A stretch of DNA of 64,000 nt from Candidatus Bathyarchaeota archaeon (GCA_963707955.1 OY970176.1:384001-448000), one strand, 5' to 3'; shown: positions 4,759 through 43,702, counted from the stretch's first letter. The notes: generated by a model not told the origin, from the letters alone. Program-made: numbers and translations.

Positions 4759-4921
4759 AAGTTATCCCAAACCTCATTCCCAATGTTTCCAGGCGCACTA
4801 CCACGGCCCACTGAACGAGCATACTTTGTTTTAAACTTTCTTTTTTGGGTATATAGCTTAATCTTTTTCGCCGTAGCGCATGACCTCAAAGCCCAGTTCG
4901 CGCGCTAACATAGAGATAAGG

Positions 4922-5075
4922 CGTATACTCGATTCCGATAATCTCCATATACGTAGCCTATTATGATGATTTCTACTCTCCCCCTCTTTCCATTACCACA
5001 AACACCTAGCATGGCTGAACCGAGTGTACTGCCCTGACAATGGCCAACTTTTCCCACAGCAGGGCATCATCGTCA
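4922..5075 (-). repeat. ~150-bp structured element, inverted copy of 10068-10219
   Basis: shared blocks TGACGA(C/T)GATGCCCTGCTGTGG, CATTGTCAGGGCAGTA(T/C)ACTCGGTTCAG and an exact 19-mer TATCGGAATCGAGTATACG. Confidence 0.85.
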
Positions 5076-5077
5076 CG

Positions 5078-6161
5078 TAGCGCGCATGCGTGTTCCTAAA
5101 TTCGATTTCTAATTGTATCAGGTGAGTCGCGTATCTCTCTCTTGAGGTGAGTCATGAGGAGATACGAGACTCTTGAGACCTTGTTTGGCAAGGTCGACTT
5201 ATCCTTTGCTGAGACAGTGCTTAATGAGACTTACCATGCGAAGGATTCTGTCGGCAGACCACCTAGAAGCCCTCTTGGCGTCTTCAAGGCTCATTTGCTC
5301 AGAAGGCTGAGGCACGTTCCAAGCGACAGGATGCTCGTGAGGCAGATGTGGAAGGACCCGAGGTTGAGGCGAATCTGTGACATAGAAGAAAATGAACCTC
5401 CATACGGCATAGCTGTCCTGTCTCGATTCAGGAGTAGGGTTGGGCCTGAAAGGCTGATGCGAATCGTTGATCACGCCATCGAGACGCTCGTAGAGAAAAG
5501 AAGAATCAAAGGAGAAACCTTGGCTTTGGATTCAACGTTCATCAAAGCGTGTAGCCGTCGAAACCTTGACAATCGTACAGGCTACAGTGACCCTGAATCG
5601 AGGGTTGGAAGAGCAGTCAAAACGAGAGATCTGGGCTACAGGCTTCACTTGGCCGTGGACTGTCGAAGCGAATTGCCCGTTGCTATGACGGGCCCCGGCA
5701 AACGAGAACGAGAAGAAACACTCTCTCAAGCTGCTTGAGAAGGCTTCACGCCACGTGAAACCTGAGAGGTTGGTTGCTGACCCACAGTACAGTTCCCAGA
5801 GCCTGCGAGACGCAGCCCTTGAGCAAGGAACGGTGCCTGTCATTCCTTACCCGCGAAACCAGCAGAAAGGCGTCAAAGGTGTTCTCAGAATCGACAGAAA
5901 ATTCAGGAGCCACGGGCCTCAACAGCTCAGACGAGCCTACAGAAGGCGCGCGGCAGTCGAACGAGTCTTCAGCAGACTCAAGAACCTCGCAGGCTTAACC
6001 CTGCACAACCTGAGAGGACTGGTCAAAATAACGTTGCACGCTCAGCTCTGCCTGCTCATCATGCTCTTCACAGCCCAAGCCGCCATAAACACGCACAGAC
6101 CAAGCAAAGCCCGAAGCATAAGATACTTCGCAAACTAATTTCGGAACACACATGCGCGCTA
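5078..6161 (+). mobile_element. insertion sequence (IS5/IS1182-like DDE) with terminal inverted repeats
   Basis: 5078-5102 TAGCGCGCATGCGTGTTCCTAAATT versus reverse complement of 6137-6161 TAGCGCGCATGTGTGTTCCGAAATT (23/25); the outer GCGCGC may be duplicated target. Confidence 0.9.
5154..6138 (+). CDS. DDE transposase, frameshifted near 5691 (ORFs 5154-5738 and 5755-6138)
   Basis: GRPP, ALDST, GYRLHLAVD, LVADPQY and YRRRAAVERVFSRLK motifs; the alternative frame reads APANENEKKH across the break. Confidence 0.85.
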
Positions 6162-7995: not shown

Positions 7996-9294
7996 TTATG
8001 TAAGCAGTTTCGTTACAAGATATTTTCTTATTTTCCGGTAAGCCTCTATTCTTTGTTTGCCTGTGAATTCTGGGGTTTCAAAAACAGGGTAGGCCCCTTC
8101 AACATCATCTATGGGCCAGTCTAGAAGCTCCTCTTTATCGTAGCCGATCCAGTGGCCGTTCTCGTCTACCCAACTCCAAAACTCTGTTCCAGGAATAGGC
8201 GTAGCTAAGCTCAAATGAACTCCGTCAACCTTCGTTCGCTCAACAAACTTTCTTGTTTTGTCAACAACTTTCGGGGTGTCGCCTGGATTTCCAACCATGA
8301 AAAAAACATTAGCTTTGATCCCAGCTTCACGCGTTTGCCTGATTGCTTTGTCCACTTGATCCAGGGTTATGCCCTTCTTTATTCTAGTCAAGACGTCAGG
8401 GTCTGCTGATTCGACACCGTAGTTAATTGCAGTGCATCCAGCCTTCTTCATTCTTGCTAGTAGTCCTTCAGTTACAGAGTCAACCCTTATGCCGTTCCAG
8501 AAATAAAGGCTAAGCTTCCATTTTCTCGCAATTATTCTTTCAAGAATCTTCTCAGCCCTGTCTAAATCAAACGTGAAATTATCATCTAAGAAACTGACGT
8601 CCCTAACTCCGTAGTGCTCTCTCAAGTGCTGGATTTCTGTCAGCACGTATTCTGGGCTGTGACCGCGCCAACGCTTACCAAAAACTGAACGCGAACAAAA
8701 AACACATTGATAGGGGCACCCTCTGGAAGTGAAAAGGACCCCCGCGTTCTCGCCGTAAAGGTCCATAGGCAACTTTTCTCGGGCAGGAAAAGGCAAACTG
8801 TCTAAAGTCTCTACGGGGTCCCTTGGAGAATTACTCCTAATCTTGCTTCCATCGCGGAAAATCAAACCGTTTACATCACTTAAGCCATCCTTGTTTTGCA
8901 ACCTTTCTAAAAGCTCAACAAAAGTAACCTCGCCTTCACCAACAACAGCCGCGTCGATTTCCCGGTGCCTAACCAACATCGCCTCACCCATTATGCAGGC
9001 ATAAGGACCACCAACAACCACGAAACACTCAGGAAAATGAGCCTTGACCTTGCTGACAACAGCAAGAGCCTGATACGCATTTCCAATAGCACACGAAACC
9101 CCAACAACCTCAGGCCTGTCACGAGACAAGGATTCTTCAAAAGCTGTGAAAGACTCAACATTCAAGTCTGATATTTCAACTTCAAATCCTCTTCTCTTCA
9201 GCAACGCCGCCAAATATCCTAATCCAAGAGGGGGAACTCGGGATAAACCCTTGCCAAGGGGTTGAACCAAGATAACTTTCATAATATTAGACAA
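7996..9294 (-). CDS. B12-binding radical SAM protein (class B methyltransferase-like)
   Basis: PPLGLGYLAA, VVVGGPYA, GEGE, TSRGCPYQCVFC, DDNF, GVES. Confidence 0.9.
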   Translation of the reverse strand: MSNIMKVILVQPLGKGLSRVPPLGLGYLAALLKRRGFEVEISDLNVESFTAFEESLSRDRPEVVGVSCAIGNAYQALAVVSKVKAHFPECFVVVGGPYACIMGEAMLVRHREIDAAVVGEGEVTFVELLERLQNKDGLSDVNGLIFRDGSKIRSNSPRDPVETLDSLPFPAREKLPMDLYGENAGVLFTSRGCPYQCVFCSRSVFGKRWRGHSPEYVLTEIQHLREHYGVRDVSFLDDNFTFDLDRAEKILERIIARKWKLSLYFWNGIRVDSVTEGLLARMKKAGCTAINYGVESADPDVLTRIKKGITLDQVDKAIRQTREAGIKANVFFMVGNPGDTPKVVDKTRKFVERTKVDGVHLSLATPIPGTEFWSWVDENGHWIGYDKEELLDWPIDDVEGAYPVFETPEFTGKQRIEAYRKIRKYLVTKLLT

Positions 9295-9365
9295 CTAACA
9301 GGAAATGCCAAATAAGCCTGCCGTTGACAATTGGCAATGCTTCCAAGCAAAGTCTACGCGCGCGA

Positions 9366-9485
9366 ATGAGAATGGGTAAGCGTCAGGAAATTGAAACACT
9401 AATCAATGAAGAAGCTCTGCAGTTTGCTCAATATTTGAGAAATGAAAAACAAGATTGGATTGCTAGAGTTGTAAATTGGAATTAA
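9366..9485 (+). pseudogene. putative C-terminal remnant of a solo/casposon-type Cas1
   Basis: translates to MRMGKRQEIETLINEEALQFAQYLRNEKQDWIARVVNWN*, which resembles archaeal solo Cas1 C-termini as I recall them; GCGCGC motifs on both sides. Confidence 0.6.
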
Positions 9486-9788: not shown

Positions 9789-10025
9789 ACTTTTTCCTTC
9801 ATGATTCCTATCATTTGTCCTCTGTTGTTGTGCAGATTAGATTTCTGACTCTAAGGTTCTAGCTAGTGATTCTAGTAGTTATGTGATTGTTACGGTTTCA
9901 GTAGCGCCTACGGATGAATTTGTGTTGCCTACTCGAATCTGTACAGCGCGCGCCTAATCAACGCCTTGACCATAGTGTATAGAAAGTCAGGAATAGGTCT
10001 TTTGATTCAGTTCGAGGAATTAACA

Positions 10026-10055
10026 GAAGTTGGGTTTGGGGATAAAGTTTTATCC
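10026..10055. repeat. left half-site of a palindromic recombination-like site
   Basis: GAAGTTGGGTTTGGGGATAAAGTTTTATCC; outer arm is the inverse of 10464-10485; 13-bp core is a direct repeat. Confidence 0.8.
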
Positions 10056-10067
10056 AACCAACCAAAC

Positions 10068-10219
10068 TGACGACGATGCCCTGCTGTGGAAAAAGGCAGT
10101 CATTGTCAGGGCAGTATACTCGGTTCAGAGCATAGTACTTGATCTCTGCAAAAGAGGTATTACGGGAAATCAGATCATAATAGGGTAGAGATATAGGTAG
10201 TATCGGAATCGAGTATACG
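10068..10219 (+). repeat. ~150-bp structured element (candidate ncRNA or folded DNA site)
   Basis: stems TGCCCTG/CAGGGCA and GTATACTCGGTTC/GAATCGAGTATAC; second copy at 4922-5075. Confidence 0.8.
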
Positions 10220-10280
10220 GTCGCGTCAATTCCTTTTCAAGAATCTACCATAGGATGGCTGTATCTTTTTTGAGACGTCT

Positions 10281-10397
10281 TTATTTTTTCTTATTTGCTG
10301 CTTTTTTAGCGCATTGGGCACTGCAATATTTGTTTTTGTTATCTAATGTCGTAAAGACTTTTCCGCAAATTGAACATTTCTTTTGAATGATTCCCAT
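10281..10397 (-). CDS. 38-aa basic zinc-finger microprotein (not in ORF track)
   Basis: MGIIQKKCSICGKVFTTLDNKNKYCSAQCAKKAANKKK*; GAGGT SD and a TTATAT box upstream. Confidence 0.7.
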   Translation of the reverse strand: MGIIQKKCSICGKVFTTLDNKNKYCSAQCAKKAANKKK

Positions 10398-10452
10398 TCA
10401 CTAGACCTCATCACTACAGTTACGATTCAACAAATATAAGATTGCGTTAGGT

Positions 10453-10485
10453 GGGGGTAAAGTTTTATCCCCAAACCCAAACTTC
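10453..10485. repeat. right half-site of the palindromic recombination-like site
   Basis: GGGGGTAAAGTTTTATCCCCAAACCCAAACTTC. Confidence 0.8.
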
Positions 10486-10640
10486 CTCTTATTTCTCTTT
10501 CCTTCCCTTTCCTACCTATACTATACCTCTCTCTGACAGATCCATACAGACACACAGACAGAAGACAAACAAAAGCGCGCGCGCCAAGATTACTCCAACG
10601 TCATAAGAAATAAATTTAGGAAATAGTCGGTCTATCCATT

Positions 10641-11194
10641 ATGAAAACCACTGGATTTTTCTGGACTAGATTAAACCCTCCCCATAAAGGTCACATTAAA
10701 ATTATTAAAAGAATTCTAAAACAAGTAGATAATTTGATTGTAGTCATAGGAGTTTCACAATACAAAAATACAAAAAACAATCCATTTAGCGGGGAAGAGA
10801 GAAAGCAAATGTTGGAAGCATACTTAAAAGAAGAGGGACTAGATAAGAAGGTAAAAATAATTCCCCTTCCAGACAGTGAAGTGTCGATACAAGATGGAGT
10901 AAGATATGGTCTAAACAATACTCCAAAATTTGATGTCGCATTTTCTACACACGAAATAGAAGAACAGTTGACTCCGATAAAAATAGAAGTTGAAAAGACA
11001 CTAGAACAAGAATTGAATATTAGAAAAATTAAAATTGTTAAGTTTAAAAGAATGGGAACACTATCTTCTACGAAGATCAGAGAAGCTATAGCTTATGAAA
11101 AAAATGGGGGCATATGACAGGTAAGTCTGTCGTGAAAATAATTAAAGAACTAAATGGAATAGAAAGAATAAAGAAAGCATATAATAGTAGTTAG
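10641..11194 (+). CDS. nicotinamide-nucleotide adenylyltransferase-like HxGH nucleotidyltransferase; frameshift in the A-run near 11100
   Basis: RLNPPHKGH, NPFSGEER, SSTKIRE; continues KWGHMTGKSVVKIIKELNGIERIK to TAG at 11194; AT-rich. Confidence 0.75.
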
Positions 11195-11347
11195 CGCGCG
11201 CTTACTAAAAAATAGTATTTCATACAGGCCCTTTTTGAAGGGAAACTCGCGCTAGCATCAGTATGCCAAGCCCTTGAGGCGGGTACATTTAAGGAAACAT
11301 TTTTCAACGGGAACAGTCAGTAAACCGCCACAGGGAGTTGCCATCAC

Positions 11348-13953: not shown

Positions 13954-14282
13954 GGATTCAGTTATTGACGTTGTGTCAAAAGCAGTTCTCAGTACGTGCA
14001 CTGACGTCATGATTTAAGGCTGAAAGACTTCTCTTGCTTGTTTCCTGCATAACAAATTATGTAACGCGCGCGCTAATCGTAGAAAGTCCAACCTTCACTT
14101 GTCCTTGGATATTGGTTCTCCTTCTCAGAAGATTGACAAAGGGATTGTCCAAATCTCGCATCTCTTCGTTTATTCCCTCAAAAAAGAGGTGCGGGGCTCT
14201 ACTCATTACGCTTCAGCGAATTTAGGAACAGGCATACGCGCTGAAATATGATAACGTTTAAACTTTACCAAACCCCAGATCA

Positions 14283-14630: not shown

Positions 14631-14859
14631 AGTTTAGACACGAAAGATGCGCGCTCAAAGAACCGTTTGTTCTCGCGATTTCTCGACGAGGCATCCGAAA
14701 AGTTCGGAATCGATAACCGTCCAAACTCGCGCGATTTGTAATTCAAAAAGGTTATTTCCCAGTCTGTTGACGACATCTCCCGCACAATCCTCTCTTTTCT
14801 CTTCCTGCAGATAGACCTTTTGAATCCGCGTTTGTAATACTTTCTTCACGATCACTTCT

Positions 14860-15480
14860 TCATTTGGCAGGCTTAAGATTCGGTCCCATTTTCTTCAAAT
14901 AGTTGTCCACTCCGTCTCCGAGAACCCTCGTCAGCAGGTCCATCCGCACGCGCATGTACTCTTCTTGAAGTATGTCAAAATGGAAGGATCCCCATTTCTT
15001 GCCTGCCACGTAAACCGTGTTCCGTACAACTCCGCCTTTCTTGAAGCCGCAAGATTCAAGCGCCCTGTGAGCCCGCGTGTTGTATTCTACGCTCCACGCT
15101 TGGCAGTGCTCAAGGCCAAGGTGCATAAAAGACATTTCGAGCAGAGCGACAGTTATTTTCTTTCCTAAACCCTTCTCCCACAGTTCCTTCTTTCCGATGT
15201 AGGTGCCGACGTCCGCTCCTGGAACGTTACCCCAAACCTCCCTGCGAATGCTGGCGAAGCCTACAGGCTCGTTTAAGTCAATGTCCTCCACGATGAAAAA
15301 GAGGTTCTTCTCATTCTTCATCCATTCAGCAAACCTTTCCTCCAGCTGAGCCATCGAAGCCATATTCAACGGTTGACTTCTGCTGTACATCATCAACTCA
15401 GAATCGTTCTCCCAAACGTGCAACAACTTCAGATCTTCCTTCTCCAAAGGCCTGAACCTCAGACCAGCAAACTCAAACAC
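14860..15480 (-). CDS. GNAT N-acetyltransferase (RimJ/RimL/SpeG-like)
   Basis: LRFRPLEKEDL, WEKGLGK, NTRAHRALESCGFKKGG; GTG start after GGGGTGA. Confidence 0.85.
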   Translation of the reverse strand: MFEFAGLRFRPLEKEDLKLLHVWENDSELMMYSRSQPLNMASMAQLEERFAEWMKNEKNLFFIVEDIDLNEPVGFASIRREVWGNVPGADVGTYIGKKELWEKGLGKKITVALLEMSFMHLGLEHCQAWSVEYNTRAHRALESCGFKKGGVVRNTVYVAGKKWGSFHFDILQEEYMRVRMDLLTRVLGDGVDNYLKKMGPNLKPAK

Positions 15481-15699
15481 CCAGATCACCCCTTTCGAAC
15501 TACTACGAAGGCAAAAATTAACCTTACCCTTAGCGCGCGCTAGCCGCTTAGATTGTCCTATGGAAAACAGGTCCCATATTCTAACGCGAGGCAGCACCCA
15601 TTACGATAGCCAGTAGCGCGCGTCTGTTTCTTCACGGCTGGTTACACCCCAACATTGCTATCGGCATTACTTGTAAGAAACAGTTTTCGCCCGCGCGCG

Positions 15700-28418: not shown

Positions 28419-30476
28419 ATGAAAAAGATAATATCAATAGCACTGATACTAGTCTTCGTTGCATCAACGATCTTTGTTGTAACACCATTCAACATAAAAG
28501 CAGCAAACGCTGCAGCATCAGACAACTACGTTGCCCTCAATGACGCGCAAGTTGCTCCGAAAGGCAACGTTGTATTGCAAGATCCTCTTGTACCTGATTC
28601 CGACCCTGTGCCATACTATTCTATTGGCAGTATCGTGACATGGGTAACCGCGAACACCTATACGGGCGGTTACTATACCCAGCGCTTCATACTAGTGGCC
28701 ATTGGCACCTATGGTGAGATTTGGGTAGCTTGCGATTCGGCTGGGATTTACCAACTAAATTGGCCCAGCGGGGACTCTAGACCCACTCCACAGATATTGA
28801 GCAATGAAATAGCATTCTACATGAACGAGTTCGACACTCTTATCTATCCCACGGACATCAAAGACTTCGGTGTTCCAGCAGTCCGCGACGGCAATGCCGC
28901 CCACTATGGACCTGCAGGACGATACAATGGAACCACGCGCGTAGCGATTCTGATTGAGAATATCATAGACGAAAACTATTATGACCCGACCTATCCATAC
29001 TACGTTGCTGGTTTCTTCGATCCTGGAGTAGATTACTATGTTGGCAGAAACGTTGTGACCATTGATTCCTACGCGTGGGAGCATCGACTGGGACCCCTCG
29101 GAACCGTGTGGACTGACAGCATAGCTGTTAATCGCCCGTACGTTTACGACAGCACTCTGGCACATGAGTTCCAACACCTAATACATGCAGACTGGAACCC
29201 AAGCGACCCTTCGTTCATGAATGAAGGCTGCAGCATGTATGCAGAATATCTCTGCGGCTTTGGAATCGACTCGAACTACGTCAACAGCTACCTCTACACG
29301 CCCGACAACTCTCTCACAGAATGGAGTGACCAAGGTGACATAAACATACTCGCCGACTACGGCGCCGCACTAATGTGGGTGTTGTACCTGAACGACCATT
29401 ATGGTGGAGTAGCTACCATAACCTATTTCGTCCAGAACGGAATACCAGGAATCGACGGAGTAAACGCTGCATTGGCTCATTTCGGCTACAAACATACCAC
29501 ATTCGATGATGTCTACCACGATTGGAGGATCGCAAACCTCATACACACAGACTTTCCTGGTTGCACAAAATACAACTACAAGAGCCTGAACTTGAACGAT
29601 CCAATATACATTTCTGCATTCACACACACGATCAGCGGCCTGCCAGTTCCACAAACTAAAGGCACAGACTTCGGGAACACATTCACGGATCTAGGCTACG
29701 ACACAGGCGTATCTGAGGTTGGACCTTATGGCTCAGACTACATAAACTTCACAAACTGGAAAACGCCAGGCTTCATTTACTTCCAAGGCGACCAATACGC
29801 AACATTTGGCTGGACACAATCTGGCGGTGTATGGTGGTCAGGCTACGGAAACATGATGGACGCACAGCTCATCAGCCAAGCGGTTTCAGTGACCAGTTCA
29901 AACTCGATGCTTACGCTTGTAACAAAATACGGCATGGAAACCACCTATGACTTCGGATTCGTCCAAGTCTCAACGGACAACGGAAAAACATGGACATCAC
30001 TGTCGAACAGCTACACAACTTCTGACTATCAGACAGACGTTCAGGCAATTATAAACAACATGCCAGGACTCAACGACTACAACCCAGACTGGCCAAGCTA
30101 CACAACGATGACATTTGACCTCTCAACTTATATAGGAAAGACAGTGCTCATAAACTTCCGCTACATGACCGACGAGTACACCAACTATGAAGGCTGGTTC
30201 ATACAAAGCGCAAGCGTGGGCACCACAGCGCTGACGCTAACTCCGACCTATCCGAAAGCAACGTACCAAGTCACAGTGATCCAAGCATTTGTAACTCGCG
30301 GAAAGACACAGTACTTGCCATACGACATGTGCTTAACGAAAGACAACAAAGGAATGGGCATCGGTGCCGCGATCAAGCCTGACTACGTCCTCCTGGTAGT
30401 TAGCCCAACGATGCATCAAGGGTTCGCTGACTACAAGTTCCAAGCGACGAAAGTTCCGCTGTTCAAATTCTGCTGA
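28419..30476 (+). CDS. secreted zinc metalloprotease (M6/M30-like) with C-terminal beta-sandwich
   Basis: signal peptide; TLAHEFQHLIH, FMNEGCS, YDFGFVQVSTDNGKTW, FRYMTD..EGW. Confidence 0.85.
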   Translation: MKKIISIALILVFVASTIFVVTPFNIKAANAAASDNYVALNDAQVAPKGNVVLQDPLVPDSDPVPYYSIGSIVTWVTANTYTGGYYTQRFILVAIGTYGEIWVACDSAGIYQLNWPSGDSRPTPQILSNEIAFYMNEFDTLIYPTDIKDFGVPAVRDGNAAHYGPAGRYNGTTRVAILIENIIDENYYDPTYPYYVAGFFDPGVDYYVGRNVVTIDSYAWEHRLGPLGTVWTDSIAVNRPYVYDSTLAHEFQHLIHADWNPSDPSFMNEGCSMYAEYLCGFGIDSNYVNSYLYTPDNSLTEWSDQGDINILADYGAALMWVLYLNDHYGGVATITYFVQNGIPGIDGVNAALAHFGYKHTTFDDVYHDWRIANLIHTDFPGCTKYNYKSLNLNDPIYISAFTHTISGLPVPQTKGTDFGNTFTDLGYDTGVSEVGPYGSDYINFTNWKTPGFIYFQGDQYATFGWTQSGGVWWSGYGNMMDAQLISQAVSVTSSNSMLTLVTKYGMETTYDFGFVQVSTDNGKTWTSLSNSYTTSDYQTDVQAIINNMPGLNDYNPDWPSYTTMTFDLSTYIGKTVLINFRYMTDEYTNYEGWFIQSASVGTTALTLTPTYPKATYQVTVIQAFVTRGKTQYLPYDMCLTKDNKGMGIGAAIKPDYVLLVVSPTMHQGFADYKFQATKVPLFKFC

Positions 30477-43150: not shown

Positions 43151-43702
43151 TTGAGCAAGAAAGTCGTGACTCTTGAAGAGCGCAAGGCCGAGGTCTTGAT
43201 CAAGCTCAGAGGATACAAACTCCTCAAGAAACAGAAACGCGAAGATGCTGTTGAATACTTGGTTGAGATTCCAAGGGACAAGCAGAAGGCCGTCGTTTGG
43301 TGCGTCCCAGGTGAGACCACCGTAGGCATAAACAGCATAAACCGTCTTGCGAAAGCCATGAAAGACGCTGACATGGAAAGTGGAATAATAGTCACTGACG
43401 GAAGATACACGCACGCCGTTAAGCAGGGTGCTAGGAAAAAGAAAATTGAGCTCCTGCCCAAGACATTCCCCGCCTTCGACCTTTTTCAACACAGGCTTGT
43501 TCCGAAGCATGAAATTCTGACTGAGGAAGAGAAAACGGAGCTCCTGTTGAAGTACAGGGTGCACCCGTACCAGCTACCTCAGATAAGCTCGCTGGACCCA
43601 ACCGTCAAGGCGATAGGAGCCAAGCCGGGAGACATACTGCGGATAATAAGAAAAAGCCCGACAGCCGGCGAGCACCTAGCGTTCAGATACGTTGTAGAAT
43701 AG
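43151..43702 (+). CDS. rpoH: RNA polymerase subunit Rpo5/RpoH with ~110-aa N-terminal extra domain
   Basis: C-terminal HRLVPKHEIL..QLPQI..DP..GAKPGDILRIIRKSPTAG..FRYVV. Confidence 0.85.
   Translation: MSKKVVTLEERKAEVLIKLRGYKLLKKQKREDAVEYLVEIPRDKQKAVVWCVPGETTVGINSINRLAKAMKDADMESGIIVTDGRYTHAVKQGARKKKIELLPKTFPAFDLFQHRLVPKHEILTEEEKTELLLKYRVHPYQLPQISSLDPTVKAIGAKPGDILRIIRKSPTAGEHLAFRYVVE

Follow-up and report, generated by a model that had tools for sequence, protein, structure and literature searches.

The locus and its comparison genome

The window, by which we mean the whole 64,000-nt stretch of Candidatus Bathyarchaeota DNA that was analyzed, contains a 1.35-kb stretch without long ORFs that is home to two paired palindromic sites, designated L and R, a structured RNA element, and a gene for a zinc-finger microprotein, and is bordered by a B12/radical-SAM gene on one side and an NMNAT-like gene on the other (Table 1). 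To the left of L, the next ORF is 238 nt away, past a GCGCGCGC motif, and to the right of R, the NMNAT-like gene carries its own conserved upstream block.

Table 1. Features of the paired-site locus and of related elements elsewhere in the window (positions counted from the first nucleotide of the window)
Feature	Position	Strand	Remarks
Structured RNA copy B	4905-5078	-	Paralog of copy A, without palindromic sites
IS5-family insertion sequence	5078-6161		35-nt inverted ends (83%), starting (TA)GCGCGCATG
B12/radical-SAM gene	7996-9294	-	Left border of the 1.35-kb stretch
GCGCGCGC motif	9946-9953	.	Left bound of the paired-site segment
Left site L	10026-10070	.	G/T-rich outer arm, AT-rich core, C/A-rich inner arm
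Core repeat, copy 1 (TAAAGTTTTATCC)	10043-10055	+	Exact match
Structured RNA gene, copy A	10066-10236	+	Fold and paralog; conserved part 10066-10219
C4 zinc-finger microprotein gene (38 aa)	10281-10397	-	ORF with close homologs; basic tail
Conserved upstream region of the zinc-finger gene	10398-10451	-	P0120 alignment; GAGGT and TTATATTT box
Right site R	10440-10485	.	Inner G-rich arm, identical core, outer C/A-rich arm
Core repeat, copy 2 (TAAAGTTTTATCC)	10458-10470	+	Exact match
Low-complexity tract	10486-10574	+	CT-rich at first, CA-rich further on; reaches from R to the following GCGCGCGC motif
GCGCGCGCGC motif	10575-10584	.	Right bound of the segment; L001 homology starts here
NMNAT-like gene	10641-11117	+	Right border of the 1.35-kb stretch

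The neighboring nucleotidyltransferase has relatives that are 86-91% identical, one of which is assigned to Candidatus Bathyarchaeia. Among the 80 loci found with the NMNAT-like protein, a single one, in a Bathyarchaeia MAG (L001), was close, with 88% identity for this protein as compared with 46% for the next best locus. A blastn comparison of the window with L001 returned two shared blocks near the locus, 10571-11193 and 14841-15530, the second of which is inverted and adjoins the first in L001, as well as two more short matches at 46.6 kb. The gene upstream of the NMNAT-like gene is a different one in L001, and the paired-site locus is not syntenic there. What L001 does contain is a half-site related to L and R, TTTGGTTTTGGGGGTAAAGTCTTATC at 9354-9378(-), which lies in an unrelated context, resembles an outer arm, and has neither the RNA nor the zinc-finger gene beside it; the 17-nt center common to L and R, GGGG[AG]TAAAGT[CT]TTATC, is also kept in L001. 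A weak second L001 match, at 5761-5776, was dropped after inspection of the sequence. L001 also shows a CT tract and then a CA-rich tract after a G-rich-arm/TAAAGTYTTATC site (9255-9353(-)), in the manner of the tract that follows R; this likeness of the right flanks is one of composition and is not significant, since 73 of 1000 block shuffles scored as high, and orthology of the right flank with L001 was rejected on this ground.

Several further observations concern the surroundings of the locus. The NMNAT-like block (10571-11201) has a GC content of ~30% as against ~48% for the window, is 89% identical to L001 at the DNA level in a neighborhood that is different there, is ~30 nt shorter than its counterpart in L001, and ends directly at a GCGCGCGC motif; the 3' end of the gene itself is frameshifted, its tail being encoded by ORF 11114-11194. 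The GCGCGCGC motif occurs 21 times in the window against 0.65 expected, a number reached in 0 of 100 shuffles (further examples lie at 11194-11201 and 15533-15540). All matches fall between ORFs, 20 of the 21 within the first 27 kb, and of the four ends that delimit the two main L001-homologous blocks, three are at or beside such motifs; the 20 kb of L001 contain 11 GCGCGCG loci. Their distribution gives the impression that they punctuate small gene modules or mark the breakpoints of these, and among the papers listed in a literature search for GCGCGCGC in archaea, none was relevant by title or abstract. The transposase of the IS5-family insertion sequence is split into two ORFs, one with DUF772 and one with DDE_Tnp_1, and the GCGCGC present at both ends of the element could be a duplicated target. 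A solo sequence resembling an end of this element lies at ~14217-14244, upstream of ORF 14283. Elsewhere in the window, 43151-43702(+) encodes a protein in which an Mrr/restriction-endonuclease-like domain at the N terminus is joined to the C-terminal domain of Rpb5/RpoH, a long, eukaryote-like form of this RNA polymerase subunit.

The structured RNA and the zinc-finger microgene

The RNA element of the locus (copy A) folds at -62.3 kcal/mol (z -2.9), with -54.8 kcal/mol (z -2.8) for the opposite strand, and a G-U pair in its long stem favors the + strand. Its paralog, copy B, is 71.6% identical over 155 nt (E 2.5e-19), and both copies have a hairpin at the 5' end and contain a 13-bp long-range stem together with a conserved AUCAUAAUAGG stretch that surrounds a variable center; covariation is thin, amounting to 2 compensatory pairs of 30 from only 2 DNA copies. 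The 5' end of copy B abuts the IS5-family insertion sequence, and copy B and the paired-site segment are each bounded by GCGCGCGC motifs. A search of the whole window against Rfam at gathering thresholds identified 3 tRNAs only and left the RNA element unmatched, and a search of 9800-10700 at E <=10 gave two chance-level matches and no family for the RNA. A covariance model built from the two copies (R1) found nothing beyond them above 12.6 bits in the window, and nothing in the 51 archaeal loci of the 80 fetched (best E 0.62). A partial R1 match at 28945-29052(-) (12.6 bits, E 0.059), inside a long ORF, was taken as chance.

Relatives of the element were found when the open frame running across L and the RNA (10030-10188) was translated and used as a query against the protein collection. 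Both candidates obtained, P0163 and P0164, match and derive from metagenomic contigs; they read K-F-[YN]-P, corresponding to AAGTTT[T/A]ATCC, followed by a C/A-rich linker of 3-6 codons and then by the conserved DDDALLWKKAVIVRAV, which is the 5' module of the RNA. The two entries are spurious ORFs over homologs of the RNA in two other contigs. The antisense 92-codon frame, 9961-10236(-), gave no candidate as a protein query. The element belongs to a structured RNA family that is absent from Rfam, measures ~155 nt, and is conserved at its ends and variable in its center; the window has two copies of it, and at least two metagenomic relatives are known through translated frames only.

The zinc-finger microgene is preceded directly by two stop codons 5' of its ATG. 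The initial annotation had credited it with a TATA element and a Shine-Dalgarno sequence of its own, and both are seen, with GAGGT upstream of the ATG and a TTATATTT box ~35-40 nt upstream. The product reads MGIIQKKCSICGK...CSAQC... before its basic tail. When it was scanned against a collection of 1.84 billion proteins and the best 150 matches were examined, three close co-linear relatives at 78-92% identity were found among these 150, namely P0065 (89%), P0115 (78%), and P0120 (86%, as calculated from a four-way alignment), the other matches in this set being multi-finger proteins with repeated matches. Of the 38 columns of the four-way alignment, 27 are invariant, all 4 Cys included, and this conservation argues for a real, conserved gene. 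Pfam gave only sub-threshold C2H2-like matches to the microprotein, and comparison with solved structures gave only C2H2-like matches to its first half (best E 5e-5), which are uninformative for function.

The flanks of the relatives bear on how the microgene is joined to its neighbors. The N-terminal read-through of P0120 aligns at 87.5% with the window, beginning at 10451 and running down to 10284, and then diverges, so that the conservation stops at ~10451, inside the inner arm of R. The P0120 residues IQRAPN are the window translation across GCGCGCGC-CTAA at 9941-9958, and in the P0120 contig the zinc-finger gene probably abuts a GCGCGC motif in place of the R core. Because P0120 keeps the upstream region of the zinc-finger gene without the R core, R would not be needed as a promoter, and it is no obligatory part of the zinc-finger unit. 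On the other side of the gene, the C-terminal read-through of P0065 shows no match to the window downstream of the stop codon, which indicates that the RNA is not beside the zinc-finger gene there.

Paired palindromes as possible promoters or possible products of a crossover

The core TAAAGTTTTATCC is present in exactly two copies with a start-to-start spacing of 415, as had been claimed for a 13-bp direct repeat, and the repeat extends to 32 nt at 81% (10037-10068 vs 10452-10483). The description of the outer halves as a near-perfect palindrome and of the inner halves as a weaker one was equally borne out: the former match in 21 of 22 aligned columns, the remaining column being a 1-nt gap (score 37), and the latter in 8/10 (score 10). 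When each site was compared with its own reverse complement, the score was 32 for L and 30 for R, and the corresponding DNA hairpins have -8.0 kcal/mol for L, a value equaled or bettered by 5 of 200 shuffles, and -7.5 kcal/mol for R (14 of 200 shuffles); taken singly, L or R is only a modest palindrome. The outer-arm 15-mer GGGTTTGGGGATAAA is found exactly at 10032-10046(+) and 10464-10478(-), with ~1e-4 exact inverted 15-mers expected in 64 kb by calculation, and has no further copy in the 64-kb window at <=3 mismatches. The 16-mer core at <=3 mismatches gave five matches against 0.43 expected, a number that 0 of 100 shuffles reached, four of the five being L and R read on both strands. A third core-like site at 2225-2237 (1 mismatch) was attributed to chance, there being 4 matches at <=2 mismatches against 1.6 expected. 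An ungapped arm test (>=15 of 20) was failed by L, R, and every other locus of the window, this type of scan being unable to reveal a class of similar palindromes. The inverted repeat at the ends comprises 26 nt at 88% and is extendable to 43 nt at 79% (E 0.027). There is no target-site duplication: the flanks, ...TTAACA on the left and CTCTTA... on the right, have no common direct repeat, nor is there one at the alternative boundaries 10013/10498. The near identity of the outer arms implies that L and R share recent ancestry; these arms may stem from a duplicated inward-facing promoter module, from a single reciprocal crossover in the core, or from the terminal repeats of a mobile element.

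We tentatively favor a reading in which L and R are two related TATA-centered palindromes, with L as the promoter of a new small RNA and a convergent pair of RNA and microprotein genes between them. The stretch of copy A that is homologous to copy B starts at 10066-10068, 13-14 nt past the end of the core and ~20-25 nt from its center, which places the AT-rich center ~20-25 nt upstream of the likely 5' end of the RNA. The core-type box encoded by K-F-[YN]-P precedes the RNA module in both metagenomic homologs, a count that is taken from translated frames and leaves out copy B, with its insertion sequence at the 5' end. It follows that the RNA is accompanied by the core and the inner right arm, and their position just upstream of it in both relatives argues that L is a promoter, most likely the TATA-type promoter of the RNA gene. 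The core contains a TTTTAT/TTTATC box, of a type enriched upstream of ORFs in the window: TTTA-type boxes lie 12-50 nt upstream of 10 of 47 ORF starts, as compared with 1.5 +/- 1.2 at random positions (200 trials, maximum 5). The spacing from the core to the RNA module, on the other hand, varies between 10, 13, and 19 nt in the three sequences, which counts against a promoter.

In mechanistic terms, L and R would both represent one promoter-type palindrome specific to the lineage, in which an AT-rich core (ATAAAGTTTTAT) separates a G/T-rich arm from a C/A-rich one, the ~45 bp of this palindrome being the span expected between both start sites of a symmetric archaeal promoter. L would drive a structured noncoding RNA of ~155-170 nt rightwards from a start at ~10068-10075, whereas R would face the leftward zinc-finger gene, which has a TATA-like box of its own too. 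For the minus strand on this side, a start is predicted at ~10441 or ~10408, and if L and R fire both ways, further starts would lie at ~10022-10026(-) and ~10484-10490(+). If both sites are promoter-type elements, what looked like a 415-bp cassette is a convergent pair of independent small genes. The shared arms may have arisen through duplication of a promoter module of ~25-40 nt onto both inward-facing units or through one crossover in the core, an event that would be historical and carries no implication of being repeatable. That the sites act as promoters, where transcription starts, and how the arms originated are all inferred here from the sequence. Read as a promoter, L accounts for the core and the inner right arm; this alone does not explain the 21/22 match of the outer arms, and there is no obvious gene for the outward-facing halves of L and R to drive.

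The initial annotation had proposed an excisable single-gene cassette of an archaeal cassette system. The attL/attR-like geometry that it described is indeed there, in that the arms are hybrid, the 13-bp core is identical, and the target is not duplicated, and the RNA element and the zinc-finger gene do make up the cargo. They do not make up one unit, however: because copy B has no sites, and because P0120 and P0065 differ from the window beyond ~10451 and past the stop codon, respectively, the pieces do not form one mobile unit. A cargo of two separable modules, in which the left core and inner arm go with the RNA in both contigs, also speaks against an excisable single-gene cassette. A Pfam scan of 61 ORFs of the window detected no serine or tyrosine recombinase and no Cas1, only the split IS5-family DDE transposase, so that the co-occurring recombinase expected of such a system was not found among these ORFs, and the arms have no other copy in the 64-kb window. 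These results lend no support to an active archaeal cassette system or to movement of the 415-bp unit.

A past crossover between two such palindromes nonetheless explains the hybrid arms best. A single reciprocal exchange between related palindromes would account most simply for outer arms that pair with each other (21/22 complementary, against 8/10 for the inner ones) and not with their own partners, and it agrees with the identical 13-bp core and the lack of a target-site duplication. In its full form, this would be a Campbell-type insertion, in which the RNA gene and the zinc-finger gene arrived on a small circle that also had an inner-arm palindrome, and this circle underwent exchange within the core with a near-perfect chromosomal palindrome formed by the two outer arms, leaving L and R as hybrids; the agent could be a trans-acting site-specific recombinase, and hence an active cassette system, or a one-off exchange between similar promoters. 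Two comparisons are in line with this scenario. Residues 14-22 of P0163, when back-translated, show at least 3/27 mismatches to the inner left arm of R and a worse fit, with at least 10/27 mismatches, to the outer left arm of L, which is compatible with an intact inner-arm palindrome beside the RNA in another genome, and the L001 half-site resembles an outer arm without the RNA or the zinc-finger gene as a neighbor. However, the part of P0163 that distinguishes the arms is small, its five distal codons alone not being significant, and residues 1-14 show no relation to the region upstream of the zinc-finger gene, an equal or better score being obtained with 157 of 500 shuffles, so that P0163 does not represent the predicted junction of a 415-bp circle. 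The lack of a recombinase among the 61 ORFs scanned (the split transposase aside) and of other arm copies, the occurrence of the RNA and zinc-finger modules apart from each other elsewhere, the insignificant likeness of the L001 flank, and the need to assume a pre-existing perfect 46-bp palindrome also weigh against the insertion, which we regard as possible but rather unlikely.

An extension of the same idea would be a Bathyarchaeia recombination system that moves small self-expressed modules through TATA-centered promoter palindromes, with exchange inside the 13-bp core, L as attL, R as attR, a recombinase encoded elsewhere, and the same genomes shuffling gene blocks at GCGCGCGC marks; we consider such a system improbable. 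A role of L and R as operators is a distinctly improbable alternative. Here, one dimeric or tetrameric regulator would bind both sites, overlapping both TATA boxes, and the RNA and the microprotein would be co-repressed, possibly through looping of the 415 bp, with the outer half-sites near consensus and the inner halves degraded because they also encode transcript 5' ends. The two similar dyad-symmetric sites in direct register, the 17-nt center kept in L001, and the coincidence of the inner arms with conserved transcript-proximal sequence would all fit regulator binding, but no regulator gene is evident beside L or R, the 21/22 identity over 22 nt exceeds what half-site selection usually maintains, only 3 sites occur in 84 kb of Bathyarchaeia sequence, and the sequence alone does not separate operators from promoters. 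The weakest candidate, a non-autonomous MITE or foldback element spanning ~10014-10497, in whose terminal inverted repeats a self-complementary AT-rich stretch happens to lie, can draw on the inverted ends described above, a length of ~470 bp, an AT-rich interior (GC 0.36-0.42 vs ~0.48 for the window), an intergenic position, and an insertion sequence nearby, but is very improbable given that no plausible boundary shows a target-site duplication, that the 64 kb have a single copy and the 20 kb of L001 just one half-site and no copy, that the only insertion sequence of the window has unrelated ends, that the interior consists of two conserved, functional-looking genes found separately elsewhere, and that the left arm beside the RNA homolog P0163 misfits a terminal repeat (at least 10/27 mismatches).

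If L and R are promoters of the type we favor, the locus would add to what is annotated for Bathyarchaeia a new structured RNA family and a zinc-finger protein of 38 residues that is conserved, and it would give a first view of a strong promoter in this uncultured class. If the crossover took place, promoters would themselves be the recombination sites by which small expressed modules move from one locus to another, which would constitute a new gene-shuffling route in archaea.

Comparison with known recombination systems and promoters

The attL/attR pairs left by large serine recombinases and by tyrosine recombinases of the lox/FRT/dif type are hybrid sites with an identical core and no target duplication, and their dyad arms of ~20 bp surround a short asymmetric center. 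L and R are like them in being hybrid sites with an identical core, dyad arms of ~20 bp, and no target duplication, and unlike them in that no recombinase gene lies in or near the element, the 415-bp cargo is devoid of integration functions, and one "att" half of L/R would double as a conserved promoter. The Xer-dependent dif modules of Acinetobacter plasmids are small gene modules between dyad sites with swapped half-sites, which have the 11-6-11 geometry of dif and are moved by a host recombinase encoded elsewhere. The present locus similarly has small genes bracketed by dyad sites with swapped half-sites, whereas the arms of L and R measure ~21 nt around a 2-nt center (alternatively 9-8-9) and no Xer-type site or gene was identified here. 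The subterminal hairpins of IS200/IS605 elements are roughly 20-25 nt long; L and R can be viewed as two imperfect hairpins in direct orientation, but of ~45 nt, and neither a Y1 transposase nor TnpB was found among the 61 window ORFs. An IS110-type bridge RNA was rejected because the RNA and L or R have no 7-mer or 8-mer that is shared or complementary, and a single 6-mer where ~9 would be expected by chance (calculated); no DEDD transposase was found among the 61 ORFs scanned, and blastn of 10000-10520 against plasmid and phage collections gave no match.

Integron gene cassettes, including archaeal ones (bioRxiv 10.1101/2022.02.06.479319), offer a likeness in the small promoter-proximal unit, the imperfect palindromes, and the MAG-type archaeal genome; in that study, an integron is recognized by an integrase or by at least 2 attC sites within 4 kb. 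We searched 9900-10650 on both strands with a regular expression for attC, defined as R'' (RYYYAAC) on the 5' side and R' (GTTRRRY) on the 3' side, 55-140 nt apart and foldable, and obtained no match, the existing RYYYAAC/GTTRRRY boxes in this interval being in reversed order or only 21-23 nt apart. The locus differs from integron cassettes in having no R''...R' arrangement, no IntI among the 61 ORFs, sites of 45 bp that would recombine, if at all, at their center, and a cargo with its own predicted promoters; an integron cassette finds no support, with no attC in 9900-10650 and no tyrosine recombinase among these ORFs.

The bidirectional promoters of archaea, finally, are the known elements to which the favored interpretation of L and R can be compared. 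In Pyrococcus furiosus, a single symmetric TATA box with a BRE on each side fires both ways, with start sites 49-50 bp apart (PMC6640164). L and R differ from the BRE-TATA-BRE arrangement given there in having long G/T-rich and C/A-rich arms in place of the purine-rich BRE, in forming a pair with swapped arms, and in that their starts are predicted from sequence. They resemble it in their AT-rich, nearly symmetric center and in a span of ~45-50 bp as compared with 49-50 bp, and one side of L lies at promoter distance from the conserved 5' end of the RNA.
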